From a candidate division WOR-3 bacterium (lineage in GTDB: Bacteria > Hydrothermota > Tepidihabitantia > Tepidihabitantales > Tepidihabitantaceae), in assembly GCA_030612625.1 (NCBI GenBank), contig JAUWNN010000002.1, forward strand, positions 1 to 39,634: a stretch of DNA of 39,634 nt, read 5' to 3'. Numbering within the stretch: position 1 is the first letter of the stretch; the number at the start of each line of letters is the position of its first letter. Under the pieces are notes generated by a model. It had not been told where the DNA came from and made no database searches. It worked only from the letters and a program-made list of their open reading frames with translations. Below, piece by piece: positions 16,665-37,957 of the stretch. Position numbers and translations under genes: made by a program.

Positions 16665-16994
16665 ATATCTAATGATACACATCTGACAACACTCCTGGCT
16701 GCTCTCGGGAACGACCACCGGATTGAAATTGTCGAACTGCTACGTTCGGGCGAGCGTTGCGTCTGTGAAATTACACCCCATCTCGGCATTGACGCGTCGG
16801 TGGTTTCCCGCTACCTGGCGATACTGGTGCACACCGGCGTCCTGCGTTCCCGGCGCGAAGGCCGTAGAGTCCTCTATCAGATTGCCGACCACCGGGTGCT
16901 GCGGCTGCTTGATACCGCCCGGAGCATGACCGAGCACCCGGACAAAGGCAGGCCGGTCGGGCCGAAGGTCACCAGAGAAGCCATCAGATGCTGA
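16656..16994 (+). CDS. ArsR/SmtB family transcriptional repressor
   Basis: AALGNDHRIEIVELLRSGERCVCEI...SVVSRYLAIL..TGVLRSRREGRRVLY. Confidence 0.9.
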   Translation: MMHISNDTHLTTLLAALGNDHRIEIVELLRSGERCVCEITPHLGIDASVVSRYLAILVHTGVLRSRREGRRVLYQIADHRVLRLLDTARSMTEHPDKGRPVGPKVTREAIRC

Positions 16995-17689: not shown

Positions 17690-17705
17690 GACAGGAGGAA
17701 TCGAA

Positions 17706-18317: not shown

Positions 18318-18324
18318 GCTCAAG

Positions 18325-21128: not shown

Positions 21129-21137
21129 AATCCTCCT

Positions 21138-21761
21138 CTAGATTCCTATGACCTTGTCACTGTCCATGAGCATCTCGGCCAGCTCATACATGTTGGAAAC
21201 GGTGCCGACTCGCACCTGGTCCTTCAGTCCAAAGAAATCCAGACACGTGCCGCAAACCCTGACCTCCGTGCCCTGATTCTCAAGAGTCTTGAGTGCATCC
21301 AGAACCTCGGACTCGGCCAGGGACAGCTTCACCCCGCTGTTCATCAGCGCCAGGGATGCGGGCCTGGAAGGAAGTTCGACCAGGGTACGCAGGAACAGAC
21401 CCATGAGCAACTTGCCGAGCTTGTCATCACCCCGACCAAGCCGGTCCGAGCTGACGAACACTGCTGTTCCAGTCTTCGCACAGGGAGCCGCGACTTGCGA
21501 ACCTCTGACAATCGTGACCGCATAAACGCCCGGCTCCCGTTCCTTGCAGGAAACCTGACAACCGGCTCGTTCGGCAAATCGGACGATGTTGTCTCTGGAT
21601 GTTGGGCTGTCGGTGAGCACAACGACCTTTCCGCGCGGTGTGGATTCAATCGCCTTCCTGGTCCGGACAACCGGCTCAGGACAAACCAGACCCCTGACAT
21701 CCACCTCGGTTGCGCCGCCCTCATCACTTTGAGGCCCTCTGTCTTTGTCCGCATTCATCAT
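21138..21761 (-). CDS. yedF: YedF-like selenium metabolism protein (TusA/SirA + DsrE domains)
   Basis: VDVRGLVCPEPVV; LGRGDDKLGKLLM; MNSGVKL; CGTCLDFFGL; GTVSNMY; adjacent to selD. Confidence 0.85.
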   Translation of the reverse strand: MMNADKDRGPQSDEGGATEVDVRGLVCPEPVVRTRKAIESTPRGKVVVLTDSPTSRDNIVRFAERAGCQVSCKEREPGVYAVTIVRGSQVAAPCAKTGTAVFVSSDRLGRGDDKLGKLLMGLFLRTLVELPSRPASLALMNSGVKLSLAESEVLDALKTLENQGTEVRVCGTCLDFFGLKDQVRVGTVSNMYELAEMLMDSDKVIGI

Positions 21762-22108
21762 TTACCTCCTGAATCGCTGCCGACAGCATCCTGCTCAGAA
21801 ACTTTGTGTTCGGCACTGCTGTAATTTAGGACTTGTGACGGTCTGATTCCCTGTTCGGCCAGCATCGACAGAACGGCAGCCGCCGATCGCTCCTCAACCA
21901 GCAACAGCACCCCGCAGCCCTGAATTCGACGGGGTGCTACGAGAACATCGAAGCCCTTCTCTTTAAGGAACTCACCGGCCCGGAGCAACTGGTGAACCGA
22001 CCCGAAAGCCAAGGCAGAACAGGAAGCCAAGAAAGGGTGCACCCCGGACACAGGCTGCCCGTGTGCGAAAGTGGTGGAGACTCCACCACCATCATCTCCG
22101 ACAGTCAC
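21758..22108 (-). CDS. DUF3343-like putative Se/S carrier (start uncertain)
   Basis: AFGSVHQLLRAGEFLKEKGFDV..APRRIQGCGVLL; selD context. Confidence 0.6.
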   Translation of the reverse strand: MTVGDDGGGVSTTFAHGQPVSGVHPFLASCSALAFGSVHQLLRAGEFLKEKGFDVLVAPRRIQGCGVLLLVEERSAAAVLSMLAEQGIRPSQVLNYSSAEHKVSEQDAVGSDSGGK

Positions 22109-22184
22109 AAACGTGTCCTCACTGCTTGCTTCAGCGTCATCCTGCAGCTCTCCACAAACTTGCTCCGCCAGCTTTCTCCTGAAC

Positions 22185-22967
22185 CTATGGCCTCAACATC
22201 ACCTTGCAGACCGTGGACTCCGAGCCTGCGGTCAGCCGCAGCAAGTAAACACCGCCGGGCAGTTTCTCATCTTGTGACCACTGCAAACGATGCTGTCCGG
22301 CATCGCACCGGCTATCCAGCAGGGTCCTGACCGGCCGGCCGTTGATGTCGTAGAGAGCCATGTTGCACCGCGTCTGTCTGCTGTTCGGCAGCTCGGGCAC
22401 CTCGTAGTTCACCGTGGCCCCGCTTCTCACCGGGTTTGGCACGACCCGCAACCCGATTCTTCGGGACTTCCAAACCGGTTCGTCCTCTCCGATACCAACG
22501 CCTGCGAGGGTGTACGTCGTTATCGAATCTGCAAGGGACGGGTTTCCTATCGAACGGACGTGCAGATTCAGTATCTCTTCGCCGTGCGTAGTGCTTGTGT
22601 ACACCGTGATATGAATCAGTGTATCTTGCTCGCCAACTGCGAGGGTGTCATACAACACCTGTCCTGGCTCTGCTCACCTGAAACCAACACAGTAACTGAC
22701 ATACCAGTCCGGGACACCCTGAAGCACCCGGCAGTCGAACTCGTACACGTCCGGCTCGGTCCCGGTATTGGTCAGGGTGAAATGGAACTCGACAACCTCG
22801 CCCGGCTCGACCTGCTGCACCGTATCACTTCGACTGATGAACTCAAACTGGTAGCCAGCCAGGAGCGGGCTTGCGGCCAAGAGCAGCGCGGCGAGCAGGA
22901 CGGCCATGCCGCGCGCCGGCCGCTTCAGGATTGACTTTTGACTTCTGACTTCTGACTTCTGACTCAT
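22185..22967 (-). CDS. Secreted Ig-like protein with C-terminal sorting domain; putative selenoprotein (UGA at 22676-22674)
   Basis: Track ORFs 22674-22967 and 22185-22658 are one frame: WYVSYCVGFR-U-AEPGQVLYDTL; signal peptide in the first half, sorting tail in the second; hairpin GGUGUU-GUAU-GACACC 14 nt after UGA. Confidence 0.75.
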
Positions 22968-22970
22968 TGC

Positions 22971-23780
22971 CTACCTCCTCTGTTCTTCAAACCTCCTGCA
23001 GAAAGCGGTCTGCAGGATTTTTCTAGTTGTCATGTCCTGGACGAATGCGACCGCGCCCAGCATTGACCGGTTCCAGAACTCCTTGATTGGAAACGTCTCC
23101 TCCACCACCAAGGTATCGCCCTTGAGCAGGCTGACCCGAGTGCCGTTCTCGTCCGGCAACATCTGCCTCATGACGCCATTGAAGACCGAGTCGGTCGCAC
23201 CGGACGGACAGGTCCGAACACTGTCCTCCTGGACTACAATAAACAGCCTGAGACTTTCCACTGGAGTCGAATCCACGCCGGTCGCTCTCACGCGGACCGT
23301 GCCAGTGCCTGTTGCCAAGGTCGCTTCCAGACTCAACTGAGCCTTTGGAGTTACGCTCCGGGCCGCCAGGATGTAGTTACGGAACGTCTCGTAGTTATGT
23401 TCTGGCCCTGAAGTTCGAATCACATCGCCGCCATCGAATACCGTTGCCGGCTCACCGCCCGAGTCATAGTACAGCCGGCGCCGGGTTTCGACATACTCAG
23501 GACAGAGCGTATCTCCTGCCACGCGCCGGTGATAAGCAATAACCACCAGGCTGTCCGCGAACTCCTCGGCCAGGCTGTCGAGAGCATGTGCCGCATAGGG
23601 GCAGTAGACGCAGCGCACAAAAGTGAAGAACTCGACCAGCACCACCCGGTTCGTCGGAATAATCTGCAACTCCGGGGCCTCAGAGCAACCGGCAAGAGCA
23701 ACCAGAGCGGCTGCCAGCAAGCAAAGGAGCCTGCCGGAACGGACGAGACGGCCTAGTCCAGGCCGATGCATGGTAGTCAT
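22971..23780 (-). CDS. Omp28-related thioredoxin-fold lipoprotein (exact start uncertain)
   Basis: Lipobox LAGC; RVVLVEFFTFVRCVYCPYA; VIAYH; PATVFDG; VAFVQD. Confidence 0.82.
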   Translation of the reverse strand: MTTMHRPGLGRLVRSGRLLCLLAAALVALAGCSEAPELQIIPTNRVVLVEFFTFVRCVYCPYAAHALDSLAEEFADSLVVIAYHRRVAGDTLCPEYVETRRRLYYDSGGEPATVFDGGDVIRTSGPEHNYETFRNYILAARSVTPKAQLSLEATLATGTGTVRVRATGVDSTPVESLRLFIVVQEDSVRTCPSGATDSVFNGVMRQMLPDENGTRVSLLKGDTLVVEETFPIKEFWNRSMLGAVAFVQDMTTRKILQTAFCRRFEEQRR

Positions 23781-23890
23781 ATCTCTGTACTGAAGTAATG
23801 AATCCGGCCCCAGTCATCCTTCACAGTGCCGATGACCACCGCGGCCAGACCGCAGACGAGAAAAATAGCGAACAACACACGTCTGACCAC
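23753..23890 (-). CDS. CD1871A-like small membrane protein with UxxC motif (putative selenoprotein, absent from ORF track)
   Basis: GTG start; (M)VRRVLFAIFLVCGLAAVVIGTVKDDWGRIHYFSTEI-U-LPCIGLD*; UGA at 23779-23777; hairpin CGGCCUG-GAC-UAGGCCG 11 nt downstream. Confidence 0.75.
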
Positions 23891-24060
23891 TACACTCTCT
23901 TGTTCGGGATGAAGGATGGAACTGCCCGACCGAAAGGATGGCCGGACGAAAACGGAGGGGATGCTCTTCCTGGAGACAAACTGTCTCCTATGAGTCGAGG
24001 AGTCATGTGTTCCACCTCCGGCCCATCAGCAGCAGACGCTTGGTAGAACTCATCACATAT

Positions 24061-24088
24061 AGAATAGCTGACCCACTATTCCTGTCGA
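24061..24088 (-). promoter_or_regulatory. Promoter TCGACA-N16-TATTCT upstream of the selenium cluster
   Basis: Minus-strand hexamers at 24088-24083 and 24066-24061. Confidence 0.45.
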
Positions 24089-25943: not shown

Positions 25944-26879
25944 CTATCCTCCTTTGGTTGTTTCTATCTGCTTACTGCTTTCCTTCATCACTTCTTCCAG
26001 CACGGTCCGGACCCGCAGAAGCGCTTCGACGAATTCCGGTGCCACCCGGTCGCGCGGCCGCCTGATATCAACCGGAAAATCGTCGGCAATCCGCGAGGGC
26101 CGGTCCGCCATCGCCACCACCCGCTGCCCGAGGTAGACCGCTTCGTCGATGTTGTGGGTAACGAACAGGACCGTCTTGCCGGTACGCTCCCAGACCGACA
26201 GCAGTTCATCCTGCAGCCGGTGCCTCGTGCGCTCATCCAGGGCTCCGAACGGCTCATCCATCAACAGCAGGTCCGGGTCGGTCGCCAGGGACCGAGCGAT
26301 TGCCACCCGCTGTTGCATCCCGCCCGAAAGCTCGTACGGCCGGCTCCGGGCAAACCGCGCGAGCCCGACCATACCAAGCAGCTCCTTTGCCCGGGCGTGC
26401 CGCTCGCGCTTCCCGGTCCCGCGCATCTCCAGTCCGAACGCGACGTTGTCGAGCACGTTCCGCCAGGGGAAAAGCGAATACTGCTGGAACACCATCCCGG
26501 TATCCTGCCGCGGACCGGCCACCGGTTCCTCACCGACCATCACGATTCCCGAACTGGACGCGAGCAGCCCGGCCACAATCCGCAACAGCGTGGTCTTGCC
26601 GCACCCGGTCGGCCCGACCAGGCAGGTAAAGCTCCCCGGCTCGATTGCCAGGTCGATGCCGTCGAGTGCGATGACACTTCCGCCGTCCCGGCCCTGGAAC
26701 ACCTTGCTGAGGTTCTCAATCCTGATTCCCGCATTCGGCACTCGCAACTCACCCTGGAACCCTGGGACCCTTGGACCCTTGGACCCTTTCCTCTTGTCAT
26801 TCGTCACTCGAACTTCCCCCGTCACCGCTCCAAGGCCTGCCAGCCGGTGAACGGCCGCCCGAGCAACCCGATGCCCCAT
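25944..26879 (-). CDS. NitT/TauT family ABC transporter ATPase (true start probably near 26740-26805)
   Basis: GPTGCGKTT, LSGGMQQR, LLMDEPFGALD, FVTHNIDEA. Confidence 0.93.
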   Translation of the reverse strand: MGHRVARAAVHRLAGLGAVTGEVRVTNDKRKGSKGPRVPGFQGELRVPNAGIRIENLSKVFQGRDGGSVIALDGIDLAIEPGSFTCLVGPTGCGKTTLLRIVAGLLASSSGIVMVGEEPVAGPRQDTGMVFQQYSLFPWRNVLDNVAFGLEMRGTGKRERHARAKELLGMVGLARFARSRPYELSGGMQQRVAIARSLATDPDLLLMDEPFGALDERTRHRLQDELLSVWERTGKTVLFVTHNIDEAVYLGQRVVAMADRPSRIADDFPVDIRRPRDRVAPEFVEALLRVRTVLEEVMKESSKQIETTKGG

Positions 26880-27682
26880 GACAGCAGGGCCCCGACCAGG
26901 CCGATGAGAATCATCCCGGTAATCAGCACGTCCATCTCGGCCAGCTCATACGCGTAGATAATCAGATACCCGATTCCCGAATCACTGCCTGGCAGCATCT
27001 CAGCCGCGACAATCACCATCCACGCTACGCCCAGTCCGACTTTCAGACCAGTGAATATCGAAGGCAGGGCCGCGGGCAGCACCACTTTGCGGAATACCTG
27101 GCCCGGCTTCGCCCCGAGGGTCAGGGCCGACTCGACGTACACGTCCCTGACCCCGAGCACACCGTCCACAGTGTTGAGCAGTATCGGGAAGAACGCACCG
27201 TAGAACAGGATGAACAGCATCCCGACCTGGATTGTGTCGAAGACGGTGTCCGAATACCGCACCCCGAACAGGTTCACTACCGTGTAGGTCTTGAACACCG
27301 CCATCGTGAACGGCAGCCAGGCAATCGGGCACAGGGGCCGGAACATCTCGACAAACGGGCCGACTACCCGGCGCACAAACCTGATGCGGCCCATCAGGAG
27401 CCCGAGCGGCACCGCGACGACTGTCGCCAGGGTGAACCCCATCAATACCCGCACCCCGGAAACCGCGATGTTGTATACCAGGGACCCGGTTTCGAGCACG
27501 TTGTCGAGCGGGTGAATCAGCCGGTCGAATACCGCGCCGACGCGGGGCAGGAGCCACGGGTTGTGAAGCCGGACTGCCAGGAATTCCCAGACCGCAAGCA
27601 GGAGAATCGGCAGCACCACCGCCAGGCCGATGCGGCCCAGCTTCCTGCCCAATCCCTGCCTGCGGTCCGGGTTCTGAGGCAC
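26822..27682 (-). CDS. NitT/TauT family ABC transporter permease
   Basis: ESALTLGA...VVLPAALPSIFTGLK...WMVIVAAEM...GIGY. Confidence 0.93.
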   Translation of the reverse strand: MPQNPDRRQGLGRKLGRIGLAVVLPILLLAVWEFLAVRLHNPWLLPRVGAVFDRLIHPLDNVLETGSLVYNIAVSGVRVLMGFTLATVVAVPLGLLMGRIRFVRRVVGPFVEMFRPLCPIAWLPFTMAVFKTYTVVNLFGVRYSDTVFDTIQVGMLFILFYGAFFPILLNTVDGVLGVRDVYVESALTLGAKPGQVFRKVVLPAALPSIFTGLKVGLGVAWMVIVAAEMLPGSDSGIGYLIIYAYELAEMDVLITGMILIGLVGALLSWGIGLLGRPFTGWQALER

Positions 27683-27685
27683 GAG

Positions 27686-28810
27686 CTACTTGATTCTTAC
27701 GGCCGCAGCTTCGAGCGCCGGCTCAAGCAGCGAGAAGTCGTAGACCATCTCCTCAAACTCCTCCTGAGTCTTGTCCTTGAGCTTGTCCACAATCTTTCCC
27801 AGGCCCGCCATCTCCTGATACCAGACCCACATTCCGTTAAGGAAGGTCTCGTTCGGCTCAAGCCAATAACCGGAAGTGGCCATCGAAATCGACTCAACCT
27901 CAGGAGTGGTACCAATCCACTTGGCCACATACTCTACGGTCTGCTCCCGTTCCGTGTTGATATAGTGGGTGGAAACCACCATCAACTCCAGGAACTTCTG
28001 AATCACCTTGCCCTGCTTCTCAATCGCCGCTTCGGTCGCCGCAATGCAGCAGCAGGGATGGTTCTGGAAAACACCGGGTGGCAAATCGTGCAGTTCGCAC
28101 ACACAATGGCCCACGCCTTTGGCTTCGGCAAGTGCACACCACGGGTTGTTGGAAACATAGCAGTCAATCTGGTCGCTTGTCAGTCCCGGAATCAGATTCC
28201 TTTCACCTTTCATCAGGACAAACAGCACCTGGGCGTCGGTGTTCGCCTTATCACCGGTATGGGTGATACCCGCCTCGTCAAGGGCCCGCTGGAAGATAAG
28301 CTTGGCCACTGCGACCGGGTTCTTGTATCCGACTCTGACCTGCTGGTCCTGGGCATTGAGCCAAGCGACAAACTCCTCAAAAGAGTTCAGGTCAAGGTCT
28401 GGCTTGACCACCAGCATGTCGCCCTTGAAATGGAGCGGTGCGATAATCCTCATCGGCGCACCTTTATCCACGAAGAACGACACCGCGGCCACACCGCCAA
28501 GACCCACGTCAAACGCGCCCTGGCTCATCATCGTCGGCATCTTTGAACCGCCGCCGGCCTTGTACAGCTCAACTTCGGCAATCAGCTCATCGCCGTCGTA
28601 CAACTCATACAGGTCTTTGTAACGGACCTCCTTGAACCAGATGCCGTACAGCTCCTTGAAACTCTCGCCAGCCAGCGCGGCCACATAAGGTGCGCACTGA
28701 TGGTCATGGCCCACATGGCCCACTTTCAGAATCGGTACCTTGGCCGGCTGAGCATAGCCGATACTGACTATTGCCGCCGCCAGAACGACGGCAGATACTA
28801 TCCTCTGCAT
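27686..28810 (-). CDS. NitT/TauT family ABC substrate-binding protein
   Basis: RBS AAGGAGG before MQRIVSAVVLAAA; signal peptide; HPCCC motif. Confidence 0.85.
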   Translation of the reverse strand: MQRIVSAVVLAAAIVSIGYAQPAKVPILKVGHVGHDHQCAPYVAALAGESFKELYGIWFKEVRYKDLYELYDGDELIAEVELYKAGGGSKMPTMMSQGAFDVGLGGVAAVSFFVDKGAPMRIIAPLHFKGDMLVVKPDLDLNSFEEFVAWLNAQDQQVRVGYKNPVAVAKLIFQRALDEAGITHTGDKANTDAQVLFVLMKGERNLIPGLTSDQIDCYVSNNPWCALAEAKGVGHCVCELHDLPPGVFQNHPCCCIAATEAAIEKQGKVIQKFLELMVVSTHYINTEREQTVEYVAKWIGTTPEVESISMATSGYWLEPNETFLNGMWVWYQEMAGLGKIVDKLKDKTQEEFEEMVYDFSLLEPALEAAAVRIK

Positions 28811-28858: not shown

Positions 28859-29096
28859 GGGGCGACCGCCCCGGCAAGGCCCGTTCATGTCACGCACCTC
28901 GCCGGGGTAGGAAGTGAAACACAAAGGCACGAAGTGCACAAAGGAAGAGTCTGTCCGGAGAAATCTACTCCCTTAGTGTCTTCGTGTCTTTGTGGTAAAA
29001 CTCTGCCTGACTTGGCGTTCTTGGCGGTTGTTGGAAAGTCAGCTACGGGCAAACTGCCCGGAAAGTATCGGCTCAAGTCCGACACCTCCCGGTCAG
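28859..29096 (-). ncRNA. Candidate structured 5' leader (tandem hairpin motif), copy A
   Basis: Blocks 29011-29096 and 28859-28907 are conserved with copy B; G-U-containing stems form only on the minus strand; lies between a promoter and the ABC operon. Confidence 0.6.
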
Positions 29097-29127
29097 ATAG
29101 GCTCTTGAGGAAAGCGCCACTAACGGT

Positions 29128-29155
29128 AGGATACCACAAAAAAGGCTTCAGTCAA
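29128..29155 (-). promoter_or_regulatory. Promoter TTGACT-N16-TATCCT (TGn extended -10)
   Basis: Minus-strand hexamers at 29155-29150 and 29133-29128. Confidence 0.6.
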
Positions 29156-29234
29156 GAAGCTCGCCCAATCCTCTGTGCCTTGATGCCCCGCACGTTTTGG
29201 ATGTCAGAGCAGCCAGATTGACTACTAGGCCGCG

Positions 29235-29996
29235 CTAGGAGAGAGCCGCGCCCACGGCTGCCGCGAATAGAGGCATCTTGGCAATGTGGATTCGTTGGCC
29301 CAGGGCTGATTCCATCGCCAGTTGCATCCCTTTGTTCTGCGCGACGCCGCCCGTGAACACGACCTGTGGACGAACATCCAATGGTGCCATCATGTTTGCG
29401 ATGCGTCGCGCGAGTGCTTCGTGGAGTCCGGCAATGATGTCCTCCACCGGGGTGTCCGCCGCAACCAGGGACAATATCTCGGACTCGGCCATCACCACGC
29501 ACAGGCTCGATATCGCCACCGGCTTGCGCGACCTGAGCGCCAGCGGGCCGAACCGCTCGAGCGGCACCTGCAGCTTCTCGGCCAGCACCGCCAGGAAGTT
29601 GCCGGTGCCGGCCGCGCACCGGTCGTTCATCTTGAAATCGCTAACCCGGCCGCTCTCGTCCAGTACCACGACCTTGGAGTCCTGACCTCCGATGTCGATG
29701 ATTGCCCGGCATTCGGGGTGCCAGTGCCGGATCCCGAGCGCAGCCGCTTTGATCTCGGTGATGGATGCGTGGGCGAAGTCGACCGCATGCCGGGCATAGC
29801 CGGTTGCAACAAGCCTCCCGGCCCTGGACCTTTCGATCTCGGCTTCCTGCAAACAGGCTTCGTATGCGGCGTGCGCGGTCGCGCGCGGCTTGTAACCGGT
29901 AGGGCGAACATGGATGGCAACAGTCTCACCGGTATCGGTGTCTCGAATGGCAACCTTGGTGTTTATCGAGCCGACATCGATGCCAACTTTGAACAT
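29235..29996 (-). CDS. Acyl-CoA dehydratase activase (HgdC/BadF-BadG ASKHA ATPase)
   Basis: GIDVGSINTK, ATGYAR, IDIGGQDSK, MNDRCAAGTG, SLCVVMAESE, FTGGVA. Confidence 0.93.
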   Translation of the reverse strand: MFKVGIDVGSINTKVAIRDTDTGETVAIHVRPTGYKPRATAHAAYEACLQEAEIERSRAGRLVATGYARHAVDFAHASITEIKAAALGIRHWHPECRAIIDIGGQDSKVVVLDESGRVSDFKMNDRCAAGTGNFLAVLAEKLQVPLERFGPLALRSRKPVAISSLCVVMAESEILSLVAADTPVEDIIAGLHEALARRIANMMAPLDVRPQVVFTGGVAQNKGMQLAMESALGQRIHIAKMPLFAAAVGAALS

Positions 29997-29997
29997 G

Positions 29998-31080
29998 CTA
30001 CTTCCTCCGTCTTCCGTAGTCGGGATTGGACCCGGCTCTCTGGGCAGCGCGGACGAAAGCGGCAACGTTCTCTGCGGGCGTGGCCAGTGGAACCTCGCAG
30101 CCAGTCGAAGCGACGAATCCCATCGGGCAGTCGCGGTTCTCCATGACCATCCGCTCAGTTTCCCGTTCGATCGCCTCCGGTTCCGAAAGCCAGATTTCCG
30201 AGGTGTCAAAATTCCCGACGATGCGGACCTTTCTACCTACCTTGCTCACGACGTCGCCGAGATCGACGCGGTCGACGCTGATGAGGTCAGCATGAGTCTC
30301 GGGCATAGCCTCAATGATGCCGGCAGTGTCCCCGCAAATGTGGAGGATGACGTCGAGGTCGTAACGATGCCAGTAGTCAATAACTTCCCGTTCATAGGGT
30401 AAGGCAAAACCCTGATACTGGTCGGGTGATATGACGCTGCCGGAAGCGAGCGGGTCAACCAGCATTGGCAGCCCCCCTGCATTGATGACCGCGCGCGAGA
30501 ACGCAATGACTGACTCTGTGGCGTACTGGAGCAGACGGTGGACACGGTCCGGATCGAGCATCAGACCAAGCAGGAAGGTCTCTGTACCCACCAGATGCTG
30601 GGCGGTTGTGAACGGCGCCGGAATGTAGACGAGGACCGGAACCCTGTCCCCGCGAGCCTCGTATGCGTAGCGGATAGCCTCGAGATAGACATGGAGGCGT
30701 CCATCCTTTGACGGGTCAACGACGCGGCTATCAGGTTCCACCAGCTCGCTCCACTTTGGCCGTCTCAGCATCGGCAGGTCGTGCTCCGGGAACTCGAACT
30801 CAGACCCCAGTGCTTCGGCAACGATGCCTACTTCGGAGAAAATCGAGATAAAATCGTGGCCATACCGGTCCTGAGCCACGAGTTGCGCCCGGGCCATCGT
30901 TGCGCCATCGGTCACGTATTCCCGGAGCGGAACGCCCAGCACCTGCGCGGCGTGCGAGGTGATAAACGGGAAGACCGGCACTCTGTCCTGCTTTTCGTCA
31001 ATCACCAGGAGTCCGAACCGTTCGACGGAGGTCAACAGTTCCTTGTGCGGTCCGGAAGCGCCTGTTCCCTGCTCAGTCAC
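29998..31080 (-). CDS. Uroporphyrinogen decarboxylase/MtaA-CmuA family methyltransferase
   Basis: DRVPVFP, AEALG, PAPFT, DPLASG, ILHICG, GNFD, STGCEVP..TPAENV. Confidence 0.88.
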   Translation of the reverse strand: MTEQGTGASGPHKELLTSVERFGLLVIDEKQDRVPVFPFITSHAAQVLGVPLREYVTDGATMARAQLVAQDRYGHDFISIFSEVGIVAEALGSEFEFPEHDLPMLRRPKWSELVEPDSRVVDPSKDGRLHVYLEAIRYAYEARGDRVPVLVYIPAPFTTAQHLVGTETFLLGLMLDPDRVHRLLQYATESVIAFSRAVINAGGLPMLVDPLASGSVISPDQYQGFALPYEREVIDYWHRYDLDVILHICGDTAGIIEAMPETHADLISVDRVDLGDVVSKVGRKVRIVGNFDTSEIWLSEPEAIERETERMVMENRDCPMGFVASTGCEVPLATPAENVAAFVRAAQRAGSNPDYGRRRK

Positions 31081-32528
31081 CTTCGCTCCGTCAGCATCTC
31101 CAGAAACGCATCAATTCTGGTACGTATCTGCCGGCTGATTTCCTTTCCGTGCGGCGGCACGTCAAACTCGAGCACGGGCAGGTCGAGTTCCGCCTTGATG
31201 TACTCCGCGATAAGCCGTGATTCCATGGCGCAATGAGAACCACCGAGGATACCGGAGACGATAACCCCTTCAGCGTCATAGCGCCGCGCTTGGTGTATGG
31301 CAGAAGCGACCCGCTGCCGGGTCGAGCCGGTCAGCGACGCGGCCATGAACGATTCTGCGACGGCTTCAAGCGGTGGCTTGTTCTCGTCAAGAATCTCGAG
31401 GGACTGGTTGATGACATACTCGGTACCGACAACCCTCGCTCCCTGGTCTTCCAGGTAGCAGAGGAAAAGCGGGTCAGCGGGTGGTGTTATCCACACAACC
31501 CGCAGCGCATCTTCGGCCACCACGCGTTCCCTCCGTGCAGCCCGCGTTTCCGCGGTCGCGAGCAGGTGCTCAAGCACCTCGGGCCATTCGTCGATGTCCG
31601 AGTAGTGATGCAGGCATCCAAACTCGACCATCATCATCTCTACGGCAGGCAGAACTCCATCTCCGTAGGCAAGCTCGCGCAATAACTTGGTCAGTCTTCT
31701 GACCCGGTTGGCCTTGCGCACCCCGTTCCGCAGTTCCTGCTCGGTAATAGTGTAACCAGCGAACCTTTCGAGTCGGACGAGGACCCGTTCATACTCCTTG
31801 ACCAGGAAGCGAAGCGTGCCCGGGTCGTACTCGGTCTGGGAGTCAAACGTGCGTTCCTTCGCACCGGCGCAATGATAACAGTTAAGCGTCTCTCGGCGCA
31901 TGGGGGACTCTACCCACAGCACCTCAGTGGCGAATCGTTCCGCAAGCTGTTCGACCCCAGAGAAGTCGTCGCAGGAAACGCCGGTTGAAGCGATGGCTAA
32001 CTCGGGGTCTGGGAAGTAGGCGTGCTTGGCAAAGGCACCCAGCGCGGCCCGGGAGAAGCAGGCGGCGTCACCGATGCCCAGCTCAGCCGCGGCATCAAGC
32101 AACACGTTGCTCTCCATGACGAACGGCATCCACCAGATGCAGTCCGGATAGAACGCAACCAGTCCTGGAAACGAGTTGACAATCACCGGCACCGCGCCGA
32201 GGTCACCCATTGTGGCGATGACCTTCCGGCCGAGCTGACGGGCGCGGAAAAGCCGCTCAGTCTCATTCTGGACAAAGCCCCAGAGCCTCAGTGCGGCCAG
32301 CGAGTTGTCGTACTTCAGTCGCATCAGATGCCGGCAGCCGTAGATGGCAAAAGTCTGGGGCGGAAACATGTATGCCGACCACGGCCTCAGCCCATCACGT
32401 TCCTCTTGGTCCCTTCTGTAGTAGTGATAGCGGTCGAGCAGGTCGGTCGGGACTCGCTCGAACAGTCTGGCCCACTCGTCAAAGGTGATACGTTGGGCCG
32501 GAGGGTCTTGCCAGACACCTGCTATCAC
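31077..32528 (-). CDS. 2-hydroxyacyl-CoA dehydratase family subunit (HgdA/B, FldB/C-like)
   Basis: GTG start coupled to the upstream TGA; ACFSRA, GVSCDD, LPVLEFD...QIRTRIDAFLEML. Confidence 0.82.
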   Translation of the reverse strand: MIAGVWQDPPAQRITFDEWARLFERVPTDLLDRYHYYRRDQEERDGLRPWSAYMFPPQTFAIYGCRHLMRLKYDNSLAALRLWGFVQNETERLFRARQLGRKVIATMGDLGAVPVIVNSFPGLVAFYPDCIWWMPFVMESNVLLDAAAELGIGDAACFSRAALGAFAKHAYFPDPELAIASTGVSCDDFSGVEQLAERFATEVLWVESPMRRETLNCYHCAGAKERTFDSQTEYDPGTLRFLVKEYERVLVRLERFAGYTITEQELRNGVRKANRVRRLTKLLRELAYGDGVLPAVEMMMVEFGCLHHYSDIDEWPEVLEHLLATAETRAARRERVVAEDALRVVWITPPADPLFLCYLEDQGARVVGTEYVINQSLEILDENKPPLEAVAESFMAASLTGSTRQRVASAIHQARRYDAEGVIVSGILGGSHCAMESRLIAEYIKAELDLPVLEFDVPPHGKEISRQIRTRIDAFLEMLTERR

Positions 32529-33658
32529 AGGTTCTCCAGGAATGCCTCGACCCGGGTACGGAGTTGCTCCCGGTTCTCGGTCGAGTAGTTGCCGTCGATA
32601 TGAAGCATCGGGATACCGATTTCCTTGCGCAGCCGGACCGCCTCGAAGTTCCAAGGGTCACAGTAAAGCAGAGTCTTGTAGACCAGACCATGGACCCTGA
32701 ATTCCTCGACCCGGCGCTGGGCATTGGCATACACCTCATCATTGGGCCTCCGTGTCATGCACGGACTTCGCGTGAAGTAGAAGTTCGTGAGGTTGTCCAT
32801 CGCGTCACCCTCGGTGTTGCAATCGTCTGCGAACCAGCGGGTACCTTCACTCAAGAGGTCGGTGACGATGTCGGCCTTCTGCTCAATGGTTTCGACAAGC
32901 CACCGGTCCTGCTCAGCAACTTCACTGCCCCCGAGCATCAGTCTGGAGCGGTTGCTGCTTCGCGGCCTGCTTCCTGCTTTCAACTCCACATCTGCCGCGA
33001 ACTGCGCGAAGCGTTTGCCGTCCAGAATCGTTGCTAGTGTCACGAGGTTCAGGACATCGGATTCGGTGAGGGCAGGGCCGTCGTGCTTGCGCCGGTCGTC
33101 AAGTGTGCGCAGCAAACCCCGGACATGGTTGCTGCTTCTGACCTCCGGGGTGAGTCGTTCCCGCTCGAACTCCTGCCCGGTGAATGCCGCCAGTTCTGCT
33201 GCCAGCCACTCGAGCTGGCGCTTGAACTCAGTCAGCCGGTGCGGCAACGGCTCCGACGTGCGGGGCATGTATAGCTCGAACACCGGCAGATTGAAATAAC
33301 GATGGATCGATTCGGGCAGCCGGTGCAGCAGGTCGCAGGTATTCACCCCGACGATCGCATCCACCAGTGCGTACAACGAGTCAGCCGCACGCTCAGAGCG
33401 AGCCATGTCGAAGTTGCCCATTGTGCTCAGGCAGACCGGACAGGCGTCAGAACGCAGATAGCGCTCACCTCTGACCTCGGCATCGTACCCGCCTCGCATC
33501 AGGCGCACCGGAATCGCACCCGCGACCCGGATGATTTCCACTGGAGCATAGTATGAGAAGTAGCCGATAACCTTTATGCCGGCACGGCGGAAGTCTTGCA
33601 GTTCCGCGATCCGCTCGACACGGAATTCCTCTACCCGTTCTCTGGGAATCAGCGCCAT
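32525..33658 (-). CDS. 2-hydroxyacyl-CoA dehydratase family subunit
   Basis: KVIGYFSYYAPVEII..AGAIPVRL, ACPVC, NTCD, LYCDPW, QLRTRVEAFLE. Confidence 0.9.
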   Translation of the reverse strand: MALIPRERVEEFRVERIAELQDFRRAGIKVIGYFSYYAPVEIIRVAGAIPVRLMRGGYDAEVRGERYLRSDACPVCLSTMGNFDMARSERAADSLYALVDAIVGVNTCDLLHRLPESIHRYFNLPVFELYMPRTSEPLPHRLTEFKRQLEWLAAELAAFTGQEFERERLTPEVRSSNHVRGLLRTLDDRRKHDGPALTESDVLNLVTLATILDGKRFAQFAADVELKAGSRPRSSNRSRLMLGGSEVAEQDRWLVETIEQKADIVTDLLSEGTRWFADDCNTEGDAMDNLTNFYFTRSPCMTRRPNDEVYANAQRRVEEFRVHGLVYKTLLYCDPWNFEAVRLRKEIGIPMLHIDGNYSTENREQLRTRVEAFLENL

Positions 33659-35058
33659 TCAGCCAGTCTCATGGATTCAACGAATGCGTCCTCGAAGTCA
33701 CTGTGACTGCTCAGTACAACCTCGCGGCAAATGCCGGCGACCTGCTCGGCTTCAATCCTCTTGCTGCGGTCAAGACTGGCAAGGACTGCGCCACGCAGGG
33801 CAAGGTTGGAATGCCGGCGGACTGAGTTCAGCGGAACTTCAGGCAGGAGCCCGATCCGGACAGCGGCCTGTGGGTCAATCGCAGCTCCGAACTTACCGGT
33901 CAGGTAGACCCTTCCAATGTCTGCCGGCCGCTTCCCGGCAGAAACGAGCAGGAGTTTGATACCGGAGGCAAGAGCGGCCTTGGCGAGCTGGACCTCACGG
34001 ATGTCAGCCTGGGACAGGTAGACTTCCCGTGCAGAGCTGTGAGCGAGGACCAGCCTTTCCCCGCTGCTGATGCGGCCGTCAGGCCGCAGCCGTCCCGATT
34101 CAAGAGCAGCCGACACTGCGGACAGAACTCCTGAGCCGCATATCGATTGGGCCGGCCTATTCCCGATTGTCTCCACCTGAAATCCGTTTCGGGCAGGTCG
34201 GACGGTGCGCACTGCGCCCGGGCAGGCAAGGGAACCGCATTCCAATGTCGCGCCCTCGAACGCCGGCCCGGCCGCCGTCGAACAGACGAGAATCCTCTCG
34301 CGGTTCCCAAACACCACCTCGCCGTTGGTACCGGCATCGACCAGCAGGCCCAGACCGCGGGCCCGGTGGATGCCCGATGCCAGGATTGCAGCGGTGCAGT
34401 CCGCTCCCACGAAACTGCCGAGCAGAGGCGGCACCCGGACTCGGAGCGAAGGCTGCAGCGCGGTCCGGCCCGACACCGCCCGGCCCAGCGGGACCCGTGA
34501 GCGGTATGGGTACCTCCCGAGCCCGGCCGGGCTCAGACCGAGCAGGAAGTGAACCATGGTCGTGTTGCCGACCACGACAGCGGCGCGGCGGCGCGAAACC
34601 CCGGCGCGACGCATGAACTCGAGTACCGGTTCGAGCGCCCGGACCCGCCGCACCTGCCGGGCTCGGGAAATCCTCGTCATCACGTCGGAGCCGAACACCA
34701 CCTGCGGGTTAAGTACATCGCGGCGGCTTCGCACCCGACGCCGTTTGAGATCGACCGCAGCCATCGAGATGGTCGTCGTGCCGAAATCAACCGCCAGGAC
34801 CAGGTCGGGGTCGACCCTGCGGGGTTCGATGCTCGGTCGTCTGGTAGCCGGGGATTCTCCAAGCTCGACCCGCACGGCTCCTTCGGGAATGAACTGACAG
34901 GCAAGCACGTACCGGGACCCGGACCCATCACGCACCCTGACCCGGCATTTGCCGCACATCCCATGCCCGCCGCAGTCGGACCGGACCGCTACCCCCTGCT
35001 GCCGCAGCAACGCAAGCAGGCTGCGCCTGCCGTGGGGCTTGACCTCGTTCGTTGTCAT
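33649..35058 (-). CDS. ASKHA/RACo-type reductive activator of corrinoid proteins with N-terminal 2Fe-2S domain
   Basis: CGGHGMCGKC...LAC; DFGTTT; NPQVVFGSDVMTRI; DAGTNGE; STAAGPAFEG; SICGSG; DIREVQLAKAA. Confidence 0.9.
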   Translation of the reverse strand: MTTNEVKPHGRRSLLALLRQQGVAVRSDCGGHGMCGKCRVRVRDGSGSRYVLACQFIPEGAVRVELGESPATRRPSIEPRRVDPDLVLAVDFGTTTISMAAVDLKRRRVRSRRDVLNPQVVFGSDVMTRISRARQVRRVRALEPVLEFMRRAGVSRRRAAVVVGNTTMVHFLLGLSPAGLGRYPYRSRVPLGRAVSGRTALQPSLRVRVPPLLGSFVGADCTAAILASGIHRARGLGLLVDAGTNGEVVFGNRERILVCSTAAGPAFEGATLECGSLACPGAVRTVRPARNGFQVETIGNRPAQSICGSGVLSAVSAALESGRLRPDGRISSGERLVLAHSSAREVYLSQADIREVQLAKAALASGIKLLLVSAGKRPADIGRVYLTGKFGAAIDPQAAVRIGLLPEVPLNSVRRHSNLALRGAVLASLDRSKRIEAEQVAGICREVVLSSHSDFEDAFVESMRLAEWR

Positions 35059-35065
35059 CCGGGAA

Positions 35066-36058
35066 TCAACTTCGGGCGGCATCGACGATCGCCTGAACGT
35101 TCTCGGGCGGTGAGCCGGCCGGGACATCGCAGGCGGTAGACAGGATGAACCTCGGTCCGGCGTCGGCCAGGCACTGCCGCGCCGCCTCCCCGACCTCGCC
35201 AGGTGTGCCGCCTTGCACGAGTTGCGTCGAGACATTCCCCATCAGGATGACTTCCGGACCCAGCCTCCGGCGGGCCTCGGCGAGGTCGATATCGTCCACG
35301 CTCAGTACATCCGCGCCGGTAGCGGCCATGTCGGTGATGATGTCCATCGCGTCGCCGCAGATGTGAAGACCGGCCCAGCACCCGTGGGCGTGAATCTCAT
35401 CCACCAGCCTGGCCAGGTACGGAAGGGCAAGGTCACGGAAAACCTGCGGACTGATGAGCGATCCCGACGCCACCGGGTCGCCGATGAACGGGATGCCCCC
35501 GGCCCGGACGATTGCCGCGATGTATCGGGTCTGGTTCGCGTGCGCCAGGTCGAGATACCGACGAACTGTACCAGGTTCATCCAGGACCGCGCCCAGGAAT
35601 CGTTCCATGCCGGCCAGAAAGGAGGCGAGCGTGAACGTACCCTTGATCGACGTCACGAGCGGCACCCTGTCGCCGAGCAACTCCTTGAGCATCCGCGTCG
35701 CCGCCAGCATCATCGGCAGCCGTCCGTCGCATTCGGGGTCAGCCGACTGCAGGCCGGCGTCGTCCGGCGGCTCGACCAGGAACGCGTTGTCGTTCTCCTG
35801 GAACTCGACCACGGCCCCCATCGCCTCGGCCTCGACCACGGTATCGGCAAAAACCATAACCATGTCGTACCGATATCGCTGCCAGGCGGCATGCAGAACC
35901 CGGGCCAGCGTTTCCGCATCGGTCGCCGCCTCGCCCACTTTGACTCTCGCCAGCCGGGCCGCGTGGTCCGCGACAACCATCGGGAACACAACCCGGTCTT
36001 CAGGCGGATTTCCGGCCAGGAGTGCGGCCACTCTGGCTGAAGCCGGTTCCACGGTCAA
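35066..36058 (-). CDS. Second UROD/MtaA-CmuA family methyltransferase
   Basis: EAEAMG, KGTFT, DPVASG, GLHICG, MGNV, FILSTACDVP..SPPENV. Confidence 0.88.
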   Translation of the reverse strand: MTVEPASARVAALLAGNPPEDRVVFPMVVADHAARLARVKVGEAATDAETLARVLHAAWQRYRYDMVMVFADTVVEAEAMGAVVEFQENDNAFLVEPPDDAGLQSADPECDGRLPMMLAATRMLKELLGDRVPLVTSIKGTFTLASFLAGMERFLGAVLDEPGTVRRYLDLAHANQTRYIAAIVRAGGIPFIGDPVASGSLISPQVFRDLALPYLARLVDEIHAHGCWAGLHICGDAMDIITDMAATGADVLSVDDIDLAEARRRLGPEVILMGNVSTQLVQGGTPGEVGEAARQCLADAGPRFILSTACDVPAGSPPENVQAIVDAARS

Positions 36059-36699
36059 CTCGCGCTGAGCAGTTCTTCAATTGCCTGGACCGCAGAATGT
36101 GCGTTTGGAGCCCAGGTATCGGCACCGATTCTCTCGGCAAACATGGCGTTGACCGGCGCGCCGCCGATCACCACCCTTGTCTGCGGTCTCAACCCCCTGC
36201 GGTCAAGCGCCTTCACCACATCGGCCATTCTCGGCATGGTGGTGGTCATCAGCGAAGAGATGCCCACCAGCTCCACTCCCTGGTCAGCCGCGCGCACAAA
36301 CTCCGCAACCGGCACATTCCTGCCCAGATCCACAACCTCAAAGCCTGCCGCCTCCACCATCACCTTCACGATATTCTTACCAATGTCATGGATGTCACCC
36401 CTGACTACACCCAGGGCAACCCTGCCCTTTCGCTTCGGCTCATCTCCCAGCGCCTGGCGCAGGATGTCGAACCCGGCATACATCGCCTTTGAAGCCAGAA
36501 GCACTTCGGGCACGAAGTATACCTTGGAAGCGTATTTCTCACCAACCAGCCTCATCCCCGCAGCCAGACCCTCGGTGATGGCCTTGTCCGGAGACAGCTT
36601 GCGCTCAAGCACCTGCCGGGCCAGGTTCGCTACCCGGTCCGGTTTCATGGCTGCAACCGCTTCGGCCAGCAATGCGAACAGGTCTCCGGGGTCAGTCAT
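36055..36699 (-). CDS. Corrinoid (B12-binding) methyltransferase cognate protein
   Basis: YFVPEVL cap; GDIHDIGKNIV; DLGRNVP; SSLMTTT; IGGAP. Confidence 0.95.
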   Translation of the reverse strand: MTDPGDLFALLAEAVAAMKPDRVANLARQVLERKLSPDKAITEGLAAGMRLVGEKYASKVYFVPEVLLASKAMYAGFDILRQALGDEPKRKGRVALGVVRGDIHDIGKNIVKVMVEAAGFEVVDLGRNVPVAEFVRAADQGVELVGISSLMTTTMPRMADVVKALDRRGLRPQTRVVIGGAPVNAMFAERIGADTWAPNAHSAVQAIEELLSAS

Positions 36700-36736
36700 G
36701 TCTCCCGTTCCGTGCGGGTGCGCGATACCGGGACCG

Positions 36737-36769
36737 GAAGGCGGGCGCAGTCGAAGAGCGCCCGCCTTC
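36737..36769. terminator. 12-bp GC hairpin between methyltransferase and corrinoid genes (processing, stability or attenuation)
   Basis: GAAGGCGGGCGC-N9-GCGCCCGCCTTC; no clear U-tract. Confidence 0.4.
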
Positions 36770-36780
36770 TACGGCTCGGC

Positions 36781-37572
36781 TTACTTCTGGGCGATGTAGA
36801 ATCCGCGTCCGACCTTGTGAGCATGGGCTGCGTCGCGCCACATGTTGACCAGGTTGGTAGCAAACCCGAACAACTCCTCGCCGAAGTTCTCGATGATGGT
36901 CGGTTTCAGTTCAACCTCGACCTTCTGCTTGTAAGCGTCGAAGCACTTCGCGTAGTCCTCGGTCTGGTCCTTGGCGTCCAGTATCTTGAATCCCGCCTTC
37001 TTGAGCGCCTCCTGCCAGCCTTGGAAAGTCTCCATGTGTGGGAAAGACATCGACTCGTACAGCTTGGCGAGCAGGTCCTCCTCGACCTCGCCGGTGATGA
37101 TCCAGTCCGTGAACCCGAGCTTGCCGCCCGGCTTCAGGACCCGGAAGCACTCACGGGCCAGAAGGTACTTGTCGGTGACATAGCACCAGGCGTCCTGGCC
37201 CCAGACGATGTCGAAGGTGTCCTTCTTGAAGGGCATGTCCATCGCGTTGCCTTCGACAAAGGTGATGAGGTTGTCGAGGCCCGCATCCTTGGTGCGCTGG
37301 ATTGCCTTTTCGAGCATCGTCTTGGTGAAGTCAAGGCCAGTGACTTTGACCCTGTACTTCTTGGCGATGTGACGGGCCGGCGCGCCCAGGGCGCTGCACA
37401 CATCAAGCACGTGCATGCCGGGTTTGAGGCCGACCGCCATTGCCAGCGCGTCGGTTGCTTCCTCGCGGCCGGAGTGAATCTGCTCGGACATCACCGCTTC
37501 CCAGAGCAGTCCGCCGGGTCCGTCGTACACCTCCTGGACGTCCTTCATCGTATAGTCGTACCGCTTTGGCAT
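36781..37572 (-). CDS. Class I SAM-dependent methyltransferase (N-methyltransferase-like)
   Basis: RBS GGAGG; VLDVCSALGAP, VTGLD, GNAMDMPF, FDIVW, RVLKPGG. Confidence 0.9.
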   Translation of the reverse strand: MPKRYDYTMKDVQEVYDGPGGLLWEAVMSEQIHSGREEATDALAMAVGLKPGMHVLDVCSALGAPARHIAKKYRVKVTGLDFTKTMLEKAIQRTKDAGLDNLITFVEGNAMDMPFKKDTFDIVWGQDAWCYVTDKYLLARECFRVLKPGGKLGFTDWIITGEVEEDLLAKLYESMSFPHMETFQGWQEALKKAGFKILDAKDQTEDYAKCFDAYKQKVEVELKPTIIENFGEELFGFATNLVNMWRDAAHAHKVGRGFYIAQK

Positions 37573-37687
37573 TCTACCTCCTGTGTTTTGGGTTTTGTGT
37601 TGGCAGGCCGGCAGCGCCCCCGCGGGACCGACCATCCTTGTCCGTGGCGAGCATCCGCCCGCCGGTTGTTCTTACTGAGAAAGGATC

Positions 37688-37898
37688 GGGGCGACCGCCC
37701 CGGCACAAGGCGCTCATGTCACGCACCTCGCCGGGGACATGAAACCGCCAAGGCCGCCAAGTACGGACAGACAAAAACCGGGCCCTGATTTCAGGCCCGA
37801 CAATCTTCTCTTCTTGGCGCTCTTGGCGGTTGTTGGAAGGTCAGCTACGGGCAAACTGCCCGGAAAGTATCGGCTCAAGTCCGACACCTCCCGGTCAG
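37688..37898 (-). ncRNA. Candidate structured 5' leader (tandem hairpin motif), copy B
   Basis: 37813-37898 is 84/86 identical to 29011-29096; 37688-37736 matches 28859-28907. Confidence 0.6.
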
Positions 37899-37929
37899 GC
37901 AGACCGCATATGTTCTCAGCACTATGCCG

Positions 37930-37957
37930 AGTCTAGTCGAGAAAGAGCTAGAGTCAA
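37930..37957 (-). promoter_or_regulatory. Promoter TTGACT-N16-TAGACT
   Basis: Minus-strand hexamers at 37957-37952 and 37935-37930; same offset from the leader motif as in copy A. Confidence 0.6.

Follow-up and report, generated by a model that had tools for sequence, protein, structure and literature searches.

Chained small reading frames with selenocysteine-insertion-like hairpins form candidate selenium-sensing leaders in the Tepidihabitantaceae

What is sensed by the repeated hairpin units that stand in front of two linked operons of a candidate division WOR-3 bacterium, and by what means? The window analyzed here is a stretch of 39,634 nucleotides (assembly GCA_030612625.1, contig JAUWNN010000002.1, positions 1 to 39,634; Hydrothermota, family Tepidihabitantaceae). 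An earlier note on this DNA described an unrecognised tandem leader motif of four related hairpin units and proposed a cis-regulatory RNA with overlapping alternative stems, sensing a ligand of methyl or corrinoid metabolism or binding a protein. The sequences quoted there and the two related units per leader are indeed present, and the view that this is a so far undescribed leader RNA, cis-regulatory and with alternative stems that overlap, is upheld. The signal appears to be another one: we consider it somewhat probable, from comparative sequence evidence, that the short translated frames of each leader form a relay with selenocysteine (Sec) checkpoints and act as a selenium sensor.

Three leaders and their units

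All hairpin units, leaders and operons behind them lie on the minus strand of the window. We count three leaders: leader 2 and leader 1 with two units each, and leader 3 with a fifth unit that the earlier note had missed. A unit consists of a Shine-Dalgarno (SD)-like run, the word NUGA, in which a start codon overlaps the UGA stop of the preceding frame, and a covarying hairpin of 5–7 bp. The (U/A)UGA loop word pointed out previously is this start/stop overlap, which had also gone unnoticed. Indeed, the frame that starts at the unit 1 NUG extends precisely as far as the unit 2 UGA in leaders 1 and 2, and the same arrangement recurs in every relative recovered.

The promoter of leader 2 (TTGACT, 16-nt spacer, TAGACT; 37930..37957) is followed by a first small frame, frame 0 (37875..37922), whose GUG lies 7 nt past the -10 box, a leaderless-type start, and whose 15 codons end at the UGA of unit 1. 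The long hairpin of unit 1 (14 bp; 37860..37894) carries the SD-like GGAGGUG within its 5' arm and UUGA (37875-37878) within its 7-nt loop. Its 3' arm overlaps the 5' arm of a second hairpin resembling a selenocysteine insertion sequence (SECIS), CGGGC-AGUUU-GCCCG (37848..37862), whose loop begins 17 nt past the UGA. The first upstream open reading frame (uORF1; 37714..37878) has a UUG start and 54 codons, and its UGA stop overlaps the AUG of uORF2. The long hairpin of unit 2 (37698..37736) holds GAGGUG in its stem and AUGA (37714-37717) in its loop, and the loop of the SECIS-like hairpin CGGGGC-GGUC-GCCCCG (37687..37702) again begins 17 nt past the UGA. Finally, uORF2 (37574..37717; 47 codons) ends with a UAG 1 nt short of the AUG of a methyltransferase gene.

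In leader 1, the promoter (TTGACT, 16-nt spacer, TATCCT; 29128..29155) precedes a frame 0 of 15 codons (29073..29120; GUG 7 nt past the -10 box) that ends at the UGA of unit 1 (29046..29092; long hairpin 29058-29092, UUGA 29073-29076, SECIS-like hairpin 29046-29060). The long hairpin of unit 1 has the same sequence in leaders 1 and 2. From there uORF1 (28885..29076; 63 codons) extends to the UGA of unit 2 (28859..28907; long hairpin 28869-28907, AUGA 28885-28888, SECIS-like hairpin GGGGC-GGUC-GCCCC 28859-28872), and the frame opened by the AUG of unit 2 continues in frame into the AUG of a binding-protein gene at 28810. Leader 3 (23890..24053) has a promoter (TCGACA, 16-nt spacer, TATTCT; 24061..24088), a frame 0 of 16 codons (24003-24053; AUG 7 nt past the -10 box), an AUGA junction (24003-24006), a SECIS-like hairpin GGAGAC-AGUUU-GUCUCC (23972-23988) and a uORF1 (23890-24006).

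The four units of leaders 1 and 2 fold as had been described, at -27.7 to -33.0 kcal/mol (z-scores of -2.3 to -3.9 relative to shuffles). These leaders were said to begin about 30 nt after a -10 box; sigma-70-like promoters do precede both, with -10 boxes ending at 37930 and 29128, and the distance to unit 1 is rather ~36 nt. The combined pattern (SD-like run, NTGA, GGGC-loop-GCCC) presents four matches in the 2.9 Mb source genome (labeled G000; other G numbers denote relatives), all of them units of leaders 1 and 2. A covariance model recovered from the same genome only these four units and the fifth one, at 23961-24032 (E ≤ 0.002), with a single weak match outside the five (E = 0.02). No Rfam family matched at gathering score over the whole window, and a search of leaders 1 and 2 up to E = 10 gave only microRNA and long noncoding RNA hits at chance level (E of at least 2.6).

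Pattern scans of the three leaders for terminators found an in-leader terminator-like hairpin in leader 2 only: it is followed by a U run and lies at 37777-37801, within uORF1, in a nonconserved spacer between the arms of a dispersed repeat (see below). The other match on the leader strand of leader 2 is the unit 2 hairpin itself, and the scan returned none in leader 3 and none on the leader strand inside leader 1. The hairpin at 37777-37801 could give leader 2 alone an extra layer of transcription attenuation.

The leaders as relays of translated frames

Units were searched in relatives with a covariance model built from eight units, a search of the species genomes for the downstream methyltransferase, and a second covariance model built from 50 units. 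Junctions were counted on hand-checked units from 25 leaders. The distance from the start codon of one unit to the UGA of the next was a multiple of three without in-frame stop in all 26 cases, over 15 distinct lengths of 84–189 nt. In 43 of 52 cases, the other two frames of these stretches were interrupted by one or more stops, a count in which one such frame always includes the UGA itself. The small frames remain open even across AT-rich stretches in low-GC relatives. NUGA was found in 50/50 units, with AUG (24), GUG (20) or UUG (6) and never CUG as the start codon, and an SD core (GGAG, GAGG or AGGA) lies 4–18 nt upstream in 37 of them.

The chain extends to both ends of the leader. Upstream, 23 of 24 leaders show a sigma-70-like promoter (called at 8 or more of 12 matches) whose end precedes an in-frame start codon by 4–10 nt, mostly 5–7 nt; the resulting frame 0, with its leaderless-type start, is 9–21 codons long and closes at the UGA of unit 1. 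Downstream, the stop of the final small frame falls within -16 to +26 nt of the main start in 22 of 25 leaders (-16 in L055). The open in-frame distances, frame 0 and the position of the last frame together indicate that the leaders are relays of translated frames reaching from the 5' end of the transcript to the main gene. We conclude from this pattern of conservation that the leaders are translated.

Two further regularities were considered and abandoned. A conserved read-through stop just past the hairpin was seen in units of the G000, G015 and G014 type and not generally (over the chain nodes, some of which are spurious, the distance from hairpin to stop in the read-through frame varies from -34 to about +270 nt). 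A possible pairing of the start-codon loop with that of the hairpin, judged by eye, kept no consistent register.

A covarying SECIS-like hairpin behind each UGA

Past each UGA stands a GC-rich hairpin of 5–7 bp whose NGU loop (GGUC, GGUCU, AGUUU, AGUCU, AGUUC or CGUGY) begins 17–21 nt downstream. Over 57 aligned units, 86.5% of the cells are paired relative to 67.2% in shuffles (0/500 shuffles as high), changes on both sides are present in 6/6 pairs, and the covariation score reaches 0.497 (0.176 in shuffles and 0.08–0.18 in slid controls), all counted on an alignment fitted to the model structure, which favors it. The motif is restricted to gene starts and it covaries, two properties on which the earlier note had made its proposal depend. 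The residues encoded over the hairpin vary between units and the register of the hairpin relative to the frame shifts by 1–3 nt, so that we rejected a conserved leader peptide; the constraint acts on the RNA. These hairpins sit 80–290 nt ahead of the main start, after the UGA/start joints of the upstream frames.

According to passages of PMC4605307, a SECIS hairpin presents a stem of 6–8 bp and a conserved loop G about 20 nt past the UGA. The leader units share with such elements a UGA in frame with a translated upstream frame and a hairpin with a loop G at about 20 nt. A conserved functional read-through protein, a further feature of SECIS elements, was not found: the peptides past the UGA are not conserved and span 2–31 codons.

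The source genome offers SECIS elements of its own for comparison, and they match the leader hairpins in stem size and loop type. The first of its two selD genes (selD-A) shows a GC stem with the loop AGUUG (AGUUA once) 22 nt past the UGA, in 10 relatives as well as in G000. The second type (selD-B) has a GGUNC loop at 32–33 nt in 8/8 sequences compared, GGUUC at 32 nt in the G000 copy. The comparison of selD sequences across relatives, for both types, leaves out L138 and L140, and its L141 row is false. An HdrA-type gene of G000 presents the loop GGUC at 27 nt, and five secreted paralogs of this genome contain one in-frame UGA each, at a conserved SG(G)-U-G site, with GGUC or AGUU loops at 17–23 nt. 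Over the whole genome, a SECIS-type hairpin follows 601 of 100,706 TGA sites, with the loop starting at 16–21 nt in 193 of them. Seventy-two of the 601 sites are located in long open frames, and 18 of these were compared with Pfam: HdrA and the five paralogs look genuine, a pantoate ligase site precedes the real start of its gene, and 11 gave no family match. Judging from these features, the HdrA-type gene, the selD pair and the secreted paralogs are probable selenoprotein genes. The five paralogs lie outside the window, at C37:2216, C44:3476, C44:5690, C65:4205 and C202:3893 (L197-L200 and L206). Three of them carry a FlgD_ig-type C-terminal domain, and they may represent an undescribed selenoprotein family.

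Distribution with the selenocysteine machinery

The source genome contains selB on contig C113, a tRNA-SeC and two selD genes, each with a single in-frame UGA; one of the two is located in the window. Across the family, selB was found in 41, selD in 43 and selA in 41 of 44 genomes. Our first covariance model (R1) was biased toward units of the G000 type, with matches in 13/44 genomes, and was replaced by a second one (R2). With E ≤ 0.001, the motif is present in 37 of the 66 genomes of the order, all 37 belonging to the family of the window, where it reaches 37/44 genomes (G000 and 36 of its 43 relatives). All 37 motif-bearing genomes possess selB, the three family genomes without selB (G001, G050 and G058) lack the motif, and four family genomes with selB have no motif match; these genomes are related and do not count as independent, and several assemblies are incomplete. 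One of the three genomes without selB, G001, belongs to the same genus as G000 (1.6 Mb, 92% complete), and selA, selB, selD and the leader motif were all not found in it, which reflects either the loss of the whole selenocysteine trait or an incomplete bin.

The motif is also linked to selD itself. In 19 of the 37 motif genomes, a second selD shares a contig with the motif at a distance of 0.5–10.4 kb; in 18 of the 19, it is located downstream of the motif in the same orientation. The linked selD has no UGA in five genomes (G016, G003, G044, G045 and G042), which fits a selenium-independent backup. Open reading frame (ORF) maps combined with Pfam place selD within the row of genes that the leader heads in G016, G005 and G020. 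The row of G016 reads leader, methyltransferase, two Omp28 genes, unknown gene, SelD, corrinoid protein and MtaA-type gene; that of G005 reads leader, methyltransferase, HGD-D, activase, TusA, SelD, corrinoid protein and MtaA-type gene; in G020, the methyltransferase and an ATP-binding cassette (ABC) importer are joined. At 17 of 18 further loci, this methyltransferase is again the gene that comes first after the final unit. Together, the gene context and the type of hairpin point to selenium and selenocysteine decoding rather than to methyl donors.

Variations on this order are found in some relatives (G022 L020/L054, about 1700-2100; G020 L021/L156; L061 753-824; L048 3454-3522). Between the leader and the methyltransferase there is a gene for a small ferredoxin-thioredoxin-reductase-like CPC protein or a DMT-like membrane protein, and extra units are found near other genes on the same contigs.

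A selenium-sensing relay and its alternatives

These observations suggest a ribosome-based mechanism. Transcription would start about 7 nt past the -10 box, nearly at the start codon of frame 0, and the ribosome translating frame 0 would melt the long hairpin that masks the next SD-like run and start codon. It would then meet the UGA overlapping the NUG, at which point the SECIS-like hairpin would lie at the mRNA entrance. Under selenium shortage, SelB would lack Sec-tRNA(Sec) and release factor would terminate at the UGA; retained by the SD-like run, the ribosome would restart one base back at the NUG and read the next frame. Such restarts would carry it across one to three joints to the last frame, which ends at the main start codon, and the main gene would be translated. 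When selenium is plentiful, hairpin-bound SelB-GTP-Sec-tRNA(Sec) would insert selenocysteine at the UGA. The ribosome would overrun the start codon in the wrong frame and stop 2–31 codons further with no start within reach, the long hairpin would refold and hide the SD, and the relay would be broken. Serial joints would multiply the effect and sharpen the response.

We are evenly divided on the specific version in which serial UGA/SECIS checkpoints gauge SelB-Sec-tRNA(Sec) and switch on a selenium-scavenging regulon when Sec insertion fails. Under that version the regulon would comprise the ABC importer, the corrinoid and S-adenosylmethionine (SAM) methyl-transfer system, the double-cubane-type reductases, the outer-membrane proteins and a backup selenophosphate synthetase; the methyl-transfer system and the double-cubane-type reductases would possibly release selenide from methylated selenium compounds. 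The nature of the regulated genes (an importer, a selD that is sometimes of Cys type, TusA) fits induction by selenium shortage, and the controlled genes look like a selenium-acquisition set.

Several points weigh against the relay or its direction. In 3 of 25 leaders, namely those of the binding-protein genes of G000, G015 and G043, the final small frame continues in frame into the main gene. Most main genes have a strong SD of their own and may not depend on the relay. The read-through frame past the UGA is not conserved in length and lacks a stop before the next unit at 1 of 26 junctions. Only UGA can overlap NUG as NUGA, and the exclusive use of this stop is consequently not independent evidence for selenocysteine. 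The covariation, as stated, was counted on a favorable alignment, and the long hairpin that hides the SD is evident at the level of G000 and its close relatives. Our search did not find selA in G000; with an assembly of 303 contigs at 92% completeness, and with selA present in 41/43 relatives, a gap is likely. The model found the motif in none of the 22 genomes of four sister families, 20 of which have selB. Finally, if the methyltransferase operon serves to detoxify selenium, the predicted direction (off at high selenium) would be wrong.

The leading alternative keeps SelB and removes the decoding: SelB-GTP-Sec-tRNA bound to the hairpin would block initiation or re-initiation at each small frame, so that selenium is sensed without Sec insertion. 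The evidence from hairpin, context and distribution serves this scheme equally well, and the hairpin, 17–21 nt past the start codon, is within reach of an initiating ribosome. There is also a precedent, one that lends itself to the relay as well: according to passages of PMC13449736 (citing Thanbichler and Bock 2002), the 5' untranslated region (UTR) of E. coli selAB carries a SECIS-like element to which SelB binds together with GTP and Sec-tRNA, repressing translation. Similarly, the SECIS-type hairpins of the leaders would tie selenium genes to the state of SelB-Sec-tRNA at the level of translation. However, the selAB element, as described in those passages, is a single hairpin 3 nt from the SD of selA, with no decoded UGA and no upstream frames, whereas here one to three UGA/start joints are arranged in a frame relay, the targets are uptake and metabolism operons rather than selAB, and the hairpins do not adjoin the SD of the main gene. 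Simple blocking also leaves unexplained the in-frame UGA at SECIS distance before every hairpin (26/26 junctions and 23/24 frames 0) and the NUGA that is present in first units as well. We regard this explanation as unlikely. In either scheme, SelB is a plausible candidate binder for the protein-binding option that the earlier note had offered.

A second alternative dispenses with selenium. Translation of the main gene might simply be tied to the upstream frames, or the leader might be shielded from Rho by translation, the hairpins being generic pauses or roadblocks and the selenium context the coincidence of one gene cluster. An NUGA overlap with an upstream SD is an ordinary form of coupling (passages of PMC12548453), the UGA is imposed by the overlap, and translation through the terminator-like hairpin inside uORF1 of leader 2 could counteract termination. 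The leaders resemble AUGA/GUGA coupling, as presented in the same passages, in their NUGA overlaps, in the SD inside the upstream frame and in a last frame that ends near the main start. They differ in that each joint is followed by a SECIS-like hairpin and that the joints are stacked in a leader, as an apparent decision point. Coupling alone does not explain a covarying NGU-loop hairpin at a fixed SECIS-like distance in 57 units, its likeness to the SECIS loops of the same genome, or three separately promoted leaders that all head selD-clustered genes in one window, and the in-leader terminator-like hairpin is found in one of the three leaders only. We judge this account quite improbable.

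The proposal of an aptamer for a methyl- or corrinoid-pathway ligand fares worse, even when widened to a tandem riboswitch whose paired hairpins bind a methyl-, corrinoid- or selenium-pathway metabolite and mask the SD. The overlapping alternative stems, the sequestered SD in G000, the tandem arrangement and the absence of matches to known families are what such a riboswitch might present. However, the 50 units have in common only an SD-like run, NUGA and a simple NGU-loop hairpin, with no conserved junction or internal loop seen among them; stem sequence and the spacing ahead of the start are free to vary, and the conservation of frame over 15 spacer lengths is unexpected for an untranslated aptamer. 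A riboswitch of this kind is very improbable. We give almost no credence to the idea that the frames encode small functional selenopeptides (frame n, Sec and a short tail) instead of a regulator: the in-frame UGA and SECIS-like hairpin after a translated frame and the Cys residues near the UGA in G000 would suit it, but the peptides on either side of the UGA show no conservation of sequence or length from genus to genus, the similarity tracks an RNA hairpin whose register shifts relative to the frame, and a position at the head of operons suits a leader.

Comparison with known systems

The proposed relay combines traits of several known devices and departs from each of them in a defining feature. 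Like bacterial SECIS elements, the units have a UGA in frame with a translated ORF, a GC-rich stem and a G-U-step loop at 17–21 nt, with the loop types of the selD, HdrA and secreted selenoprotein genes of the same genome, in which selB, selD and tRNA-Sec are present. Unlike SECIS elements, they are located serially in a 5' leader, their UGA overlaps the start of another frame, and the frame past the UGA is short and unconserved; their purpose is likely control rather than selenoprotein synthesis.

The leaders of the trp and his operons are ribosome-mediated leader-peptide attenuators. The relay shares with these, and with leaderless sensing ORFs, a short translated frame through which the supply of one charged tRNA would set downstream expression, frame 0 being leaderless. 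Each short ORF holds the regulatory codon, which here would be UGA (Sec). In contrast to attenuators, the sensed event would be recoding versus termination at a single UGA instead of stalling at runs of sense codons, and the output would be termination and re-initiation via overlapping frames, with no general terminator/antiterminator pair. Passages of bioRxiv 10.1101/834739 present the poly-cysteine leaderless short ORFs of mycobacteria as sensing ORFs of this sort.

A literature search, which included passages of PMC5322559, PMC9312934 and bioRxiv 10.1101/2022.07.06.499078 and did not cover subscription journals, returned no description of leader frames with UGA and SECIS elements. What is new here is the serial stop/start relay, the leaderless frame 0, the family-wide conservation and the linked set of operons. 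Selenium sensing in bacteria is largely an open field: passages of a 2015 comparative-genomics paper describe the bacterial selenium regulatory network as not understood, LysR_Se/HrsM are the regulators named in passages of that paper and of a 2022 review, and an account of the selAB hairpin is given in passages of a 2026 paper.

If the proposed relay is correct, the decoding event itself would be the sensor, a UGA being either read as Sec or used to stop and restart, with this choice repeated one to three times. This would be the first known cis-acting RNA device that reads selenium status through recoding. It would offer a testable model of selenium homeostasis and a natural design for a recoding/re-initiation switch. 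The motif would also serve as a marker assigning genes of unknown role (the methyltransferase, the corrinoid system, the double-cubane-like reductases, the SsuA-like importer and Omp28) to selenium metabolism, and it would explain the second selD copies, often of Cys type. For annotation, these leaders are a warning that a SECIS-like hairpin after a leader UGA does not equal a broken selenoprotein gene.

Genes behind the leaders

The operon behind leader 2 (29235..37572) starts with the SAM methyltransferase (36781-37572), followed by a corrinoid protein (36055-36699), an MtaA/CmuA-type methyltransferase (35066-36058), a corrinoid reductive activase (33649-35235), two HGD-D/double-cubane-like proteins (32525-33658 and 31077-32654), a second MtaA-type methyltransferase (29998-31080) and an activase ATPase (29235-30209). 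Leader 1 heads an ABC importer (25944..28810) composed of an NMT1/SsuA-type binding protein (27686-28810), a permease (26822-27682) and an ATPase (25944-26879). The genes behind leader 3 (20091..23878), a candidate single transcript, comprise a hydrophobic membrane ORF of 33 codons (23777-23878), an Omp28-family protein (22971-23780), a protein with a type IX secretion system (T9SS) tail (22185-22658) and the second selD (about 20091-21128), with its in-frame UGA at 21084-21086. The UGA of the 33-codon ORF, which lies between leader 3 and the Omp28 gene, overlaps the Omp28 AUG and forms a further AUGA joint, without a clear SECIS-like hairpin.

The best NCBIfam models are SaoXPA for the transporter, double-cubane reductase for the HGD-D proteins and Omp28-selenoprotein for Omp28, all below their curated cut-offs. 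According to passages of Haft and Gwadz (bioRxiv 10.1101/2022.07.06.499078), double-cubane proteins and SelD occur together. The methyltransferase controlled by the leader is 81–84% identical across most of the family genera aligned and 63% identical to that of G014, and homologs of about 50% identity are found in Chlorobiaceae, Methanoperedens, Bathyarchaeia and Thermoplasmatota metagenome-assembled genomes. The first covariance model detected no leader units before the 21 such homologs searched.

Plus-strand genes at 16988-19497 are convergent with the selD of the minus strand that contains Sec. They encode a DsbD-type membrane protein, a thioredoxin-domain protein and an ArsP_1 permease, and may likewise take part in selenium handling.

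A dispersed repeat in the spacers

The earlier note had observed that the spacers differ between copies yet each form a long inverted repeat of their own. We rejected these inverted repeats as a component of the motif, since they correspond to a short repeat that is dispersed over the genome and also found in relatives. Indeed, most of the 68 BLAST matches in G000 fall on this repeat, often within 300 nt of contig ends. It is recognizable by the words CCAAG and CGCCAAG in both orientations, and it occurs at 37805-37835 and 37745-37775 on the minus strand, at about 29010-29035 and in many other contigs of G000. It resembles a repetitive extragenic palindrome (REP) or miniature inverted-repeat transposable element (MITE) that landed in the leaders without breaking their reading frames, and it is also abundant in G015 and G018.

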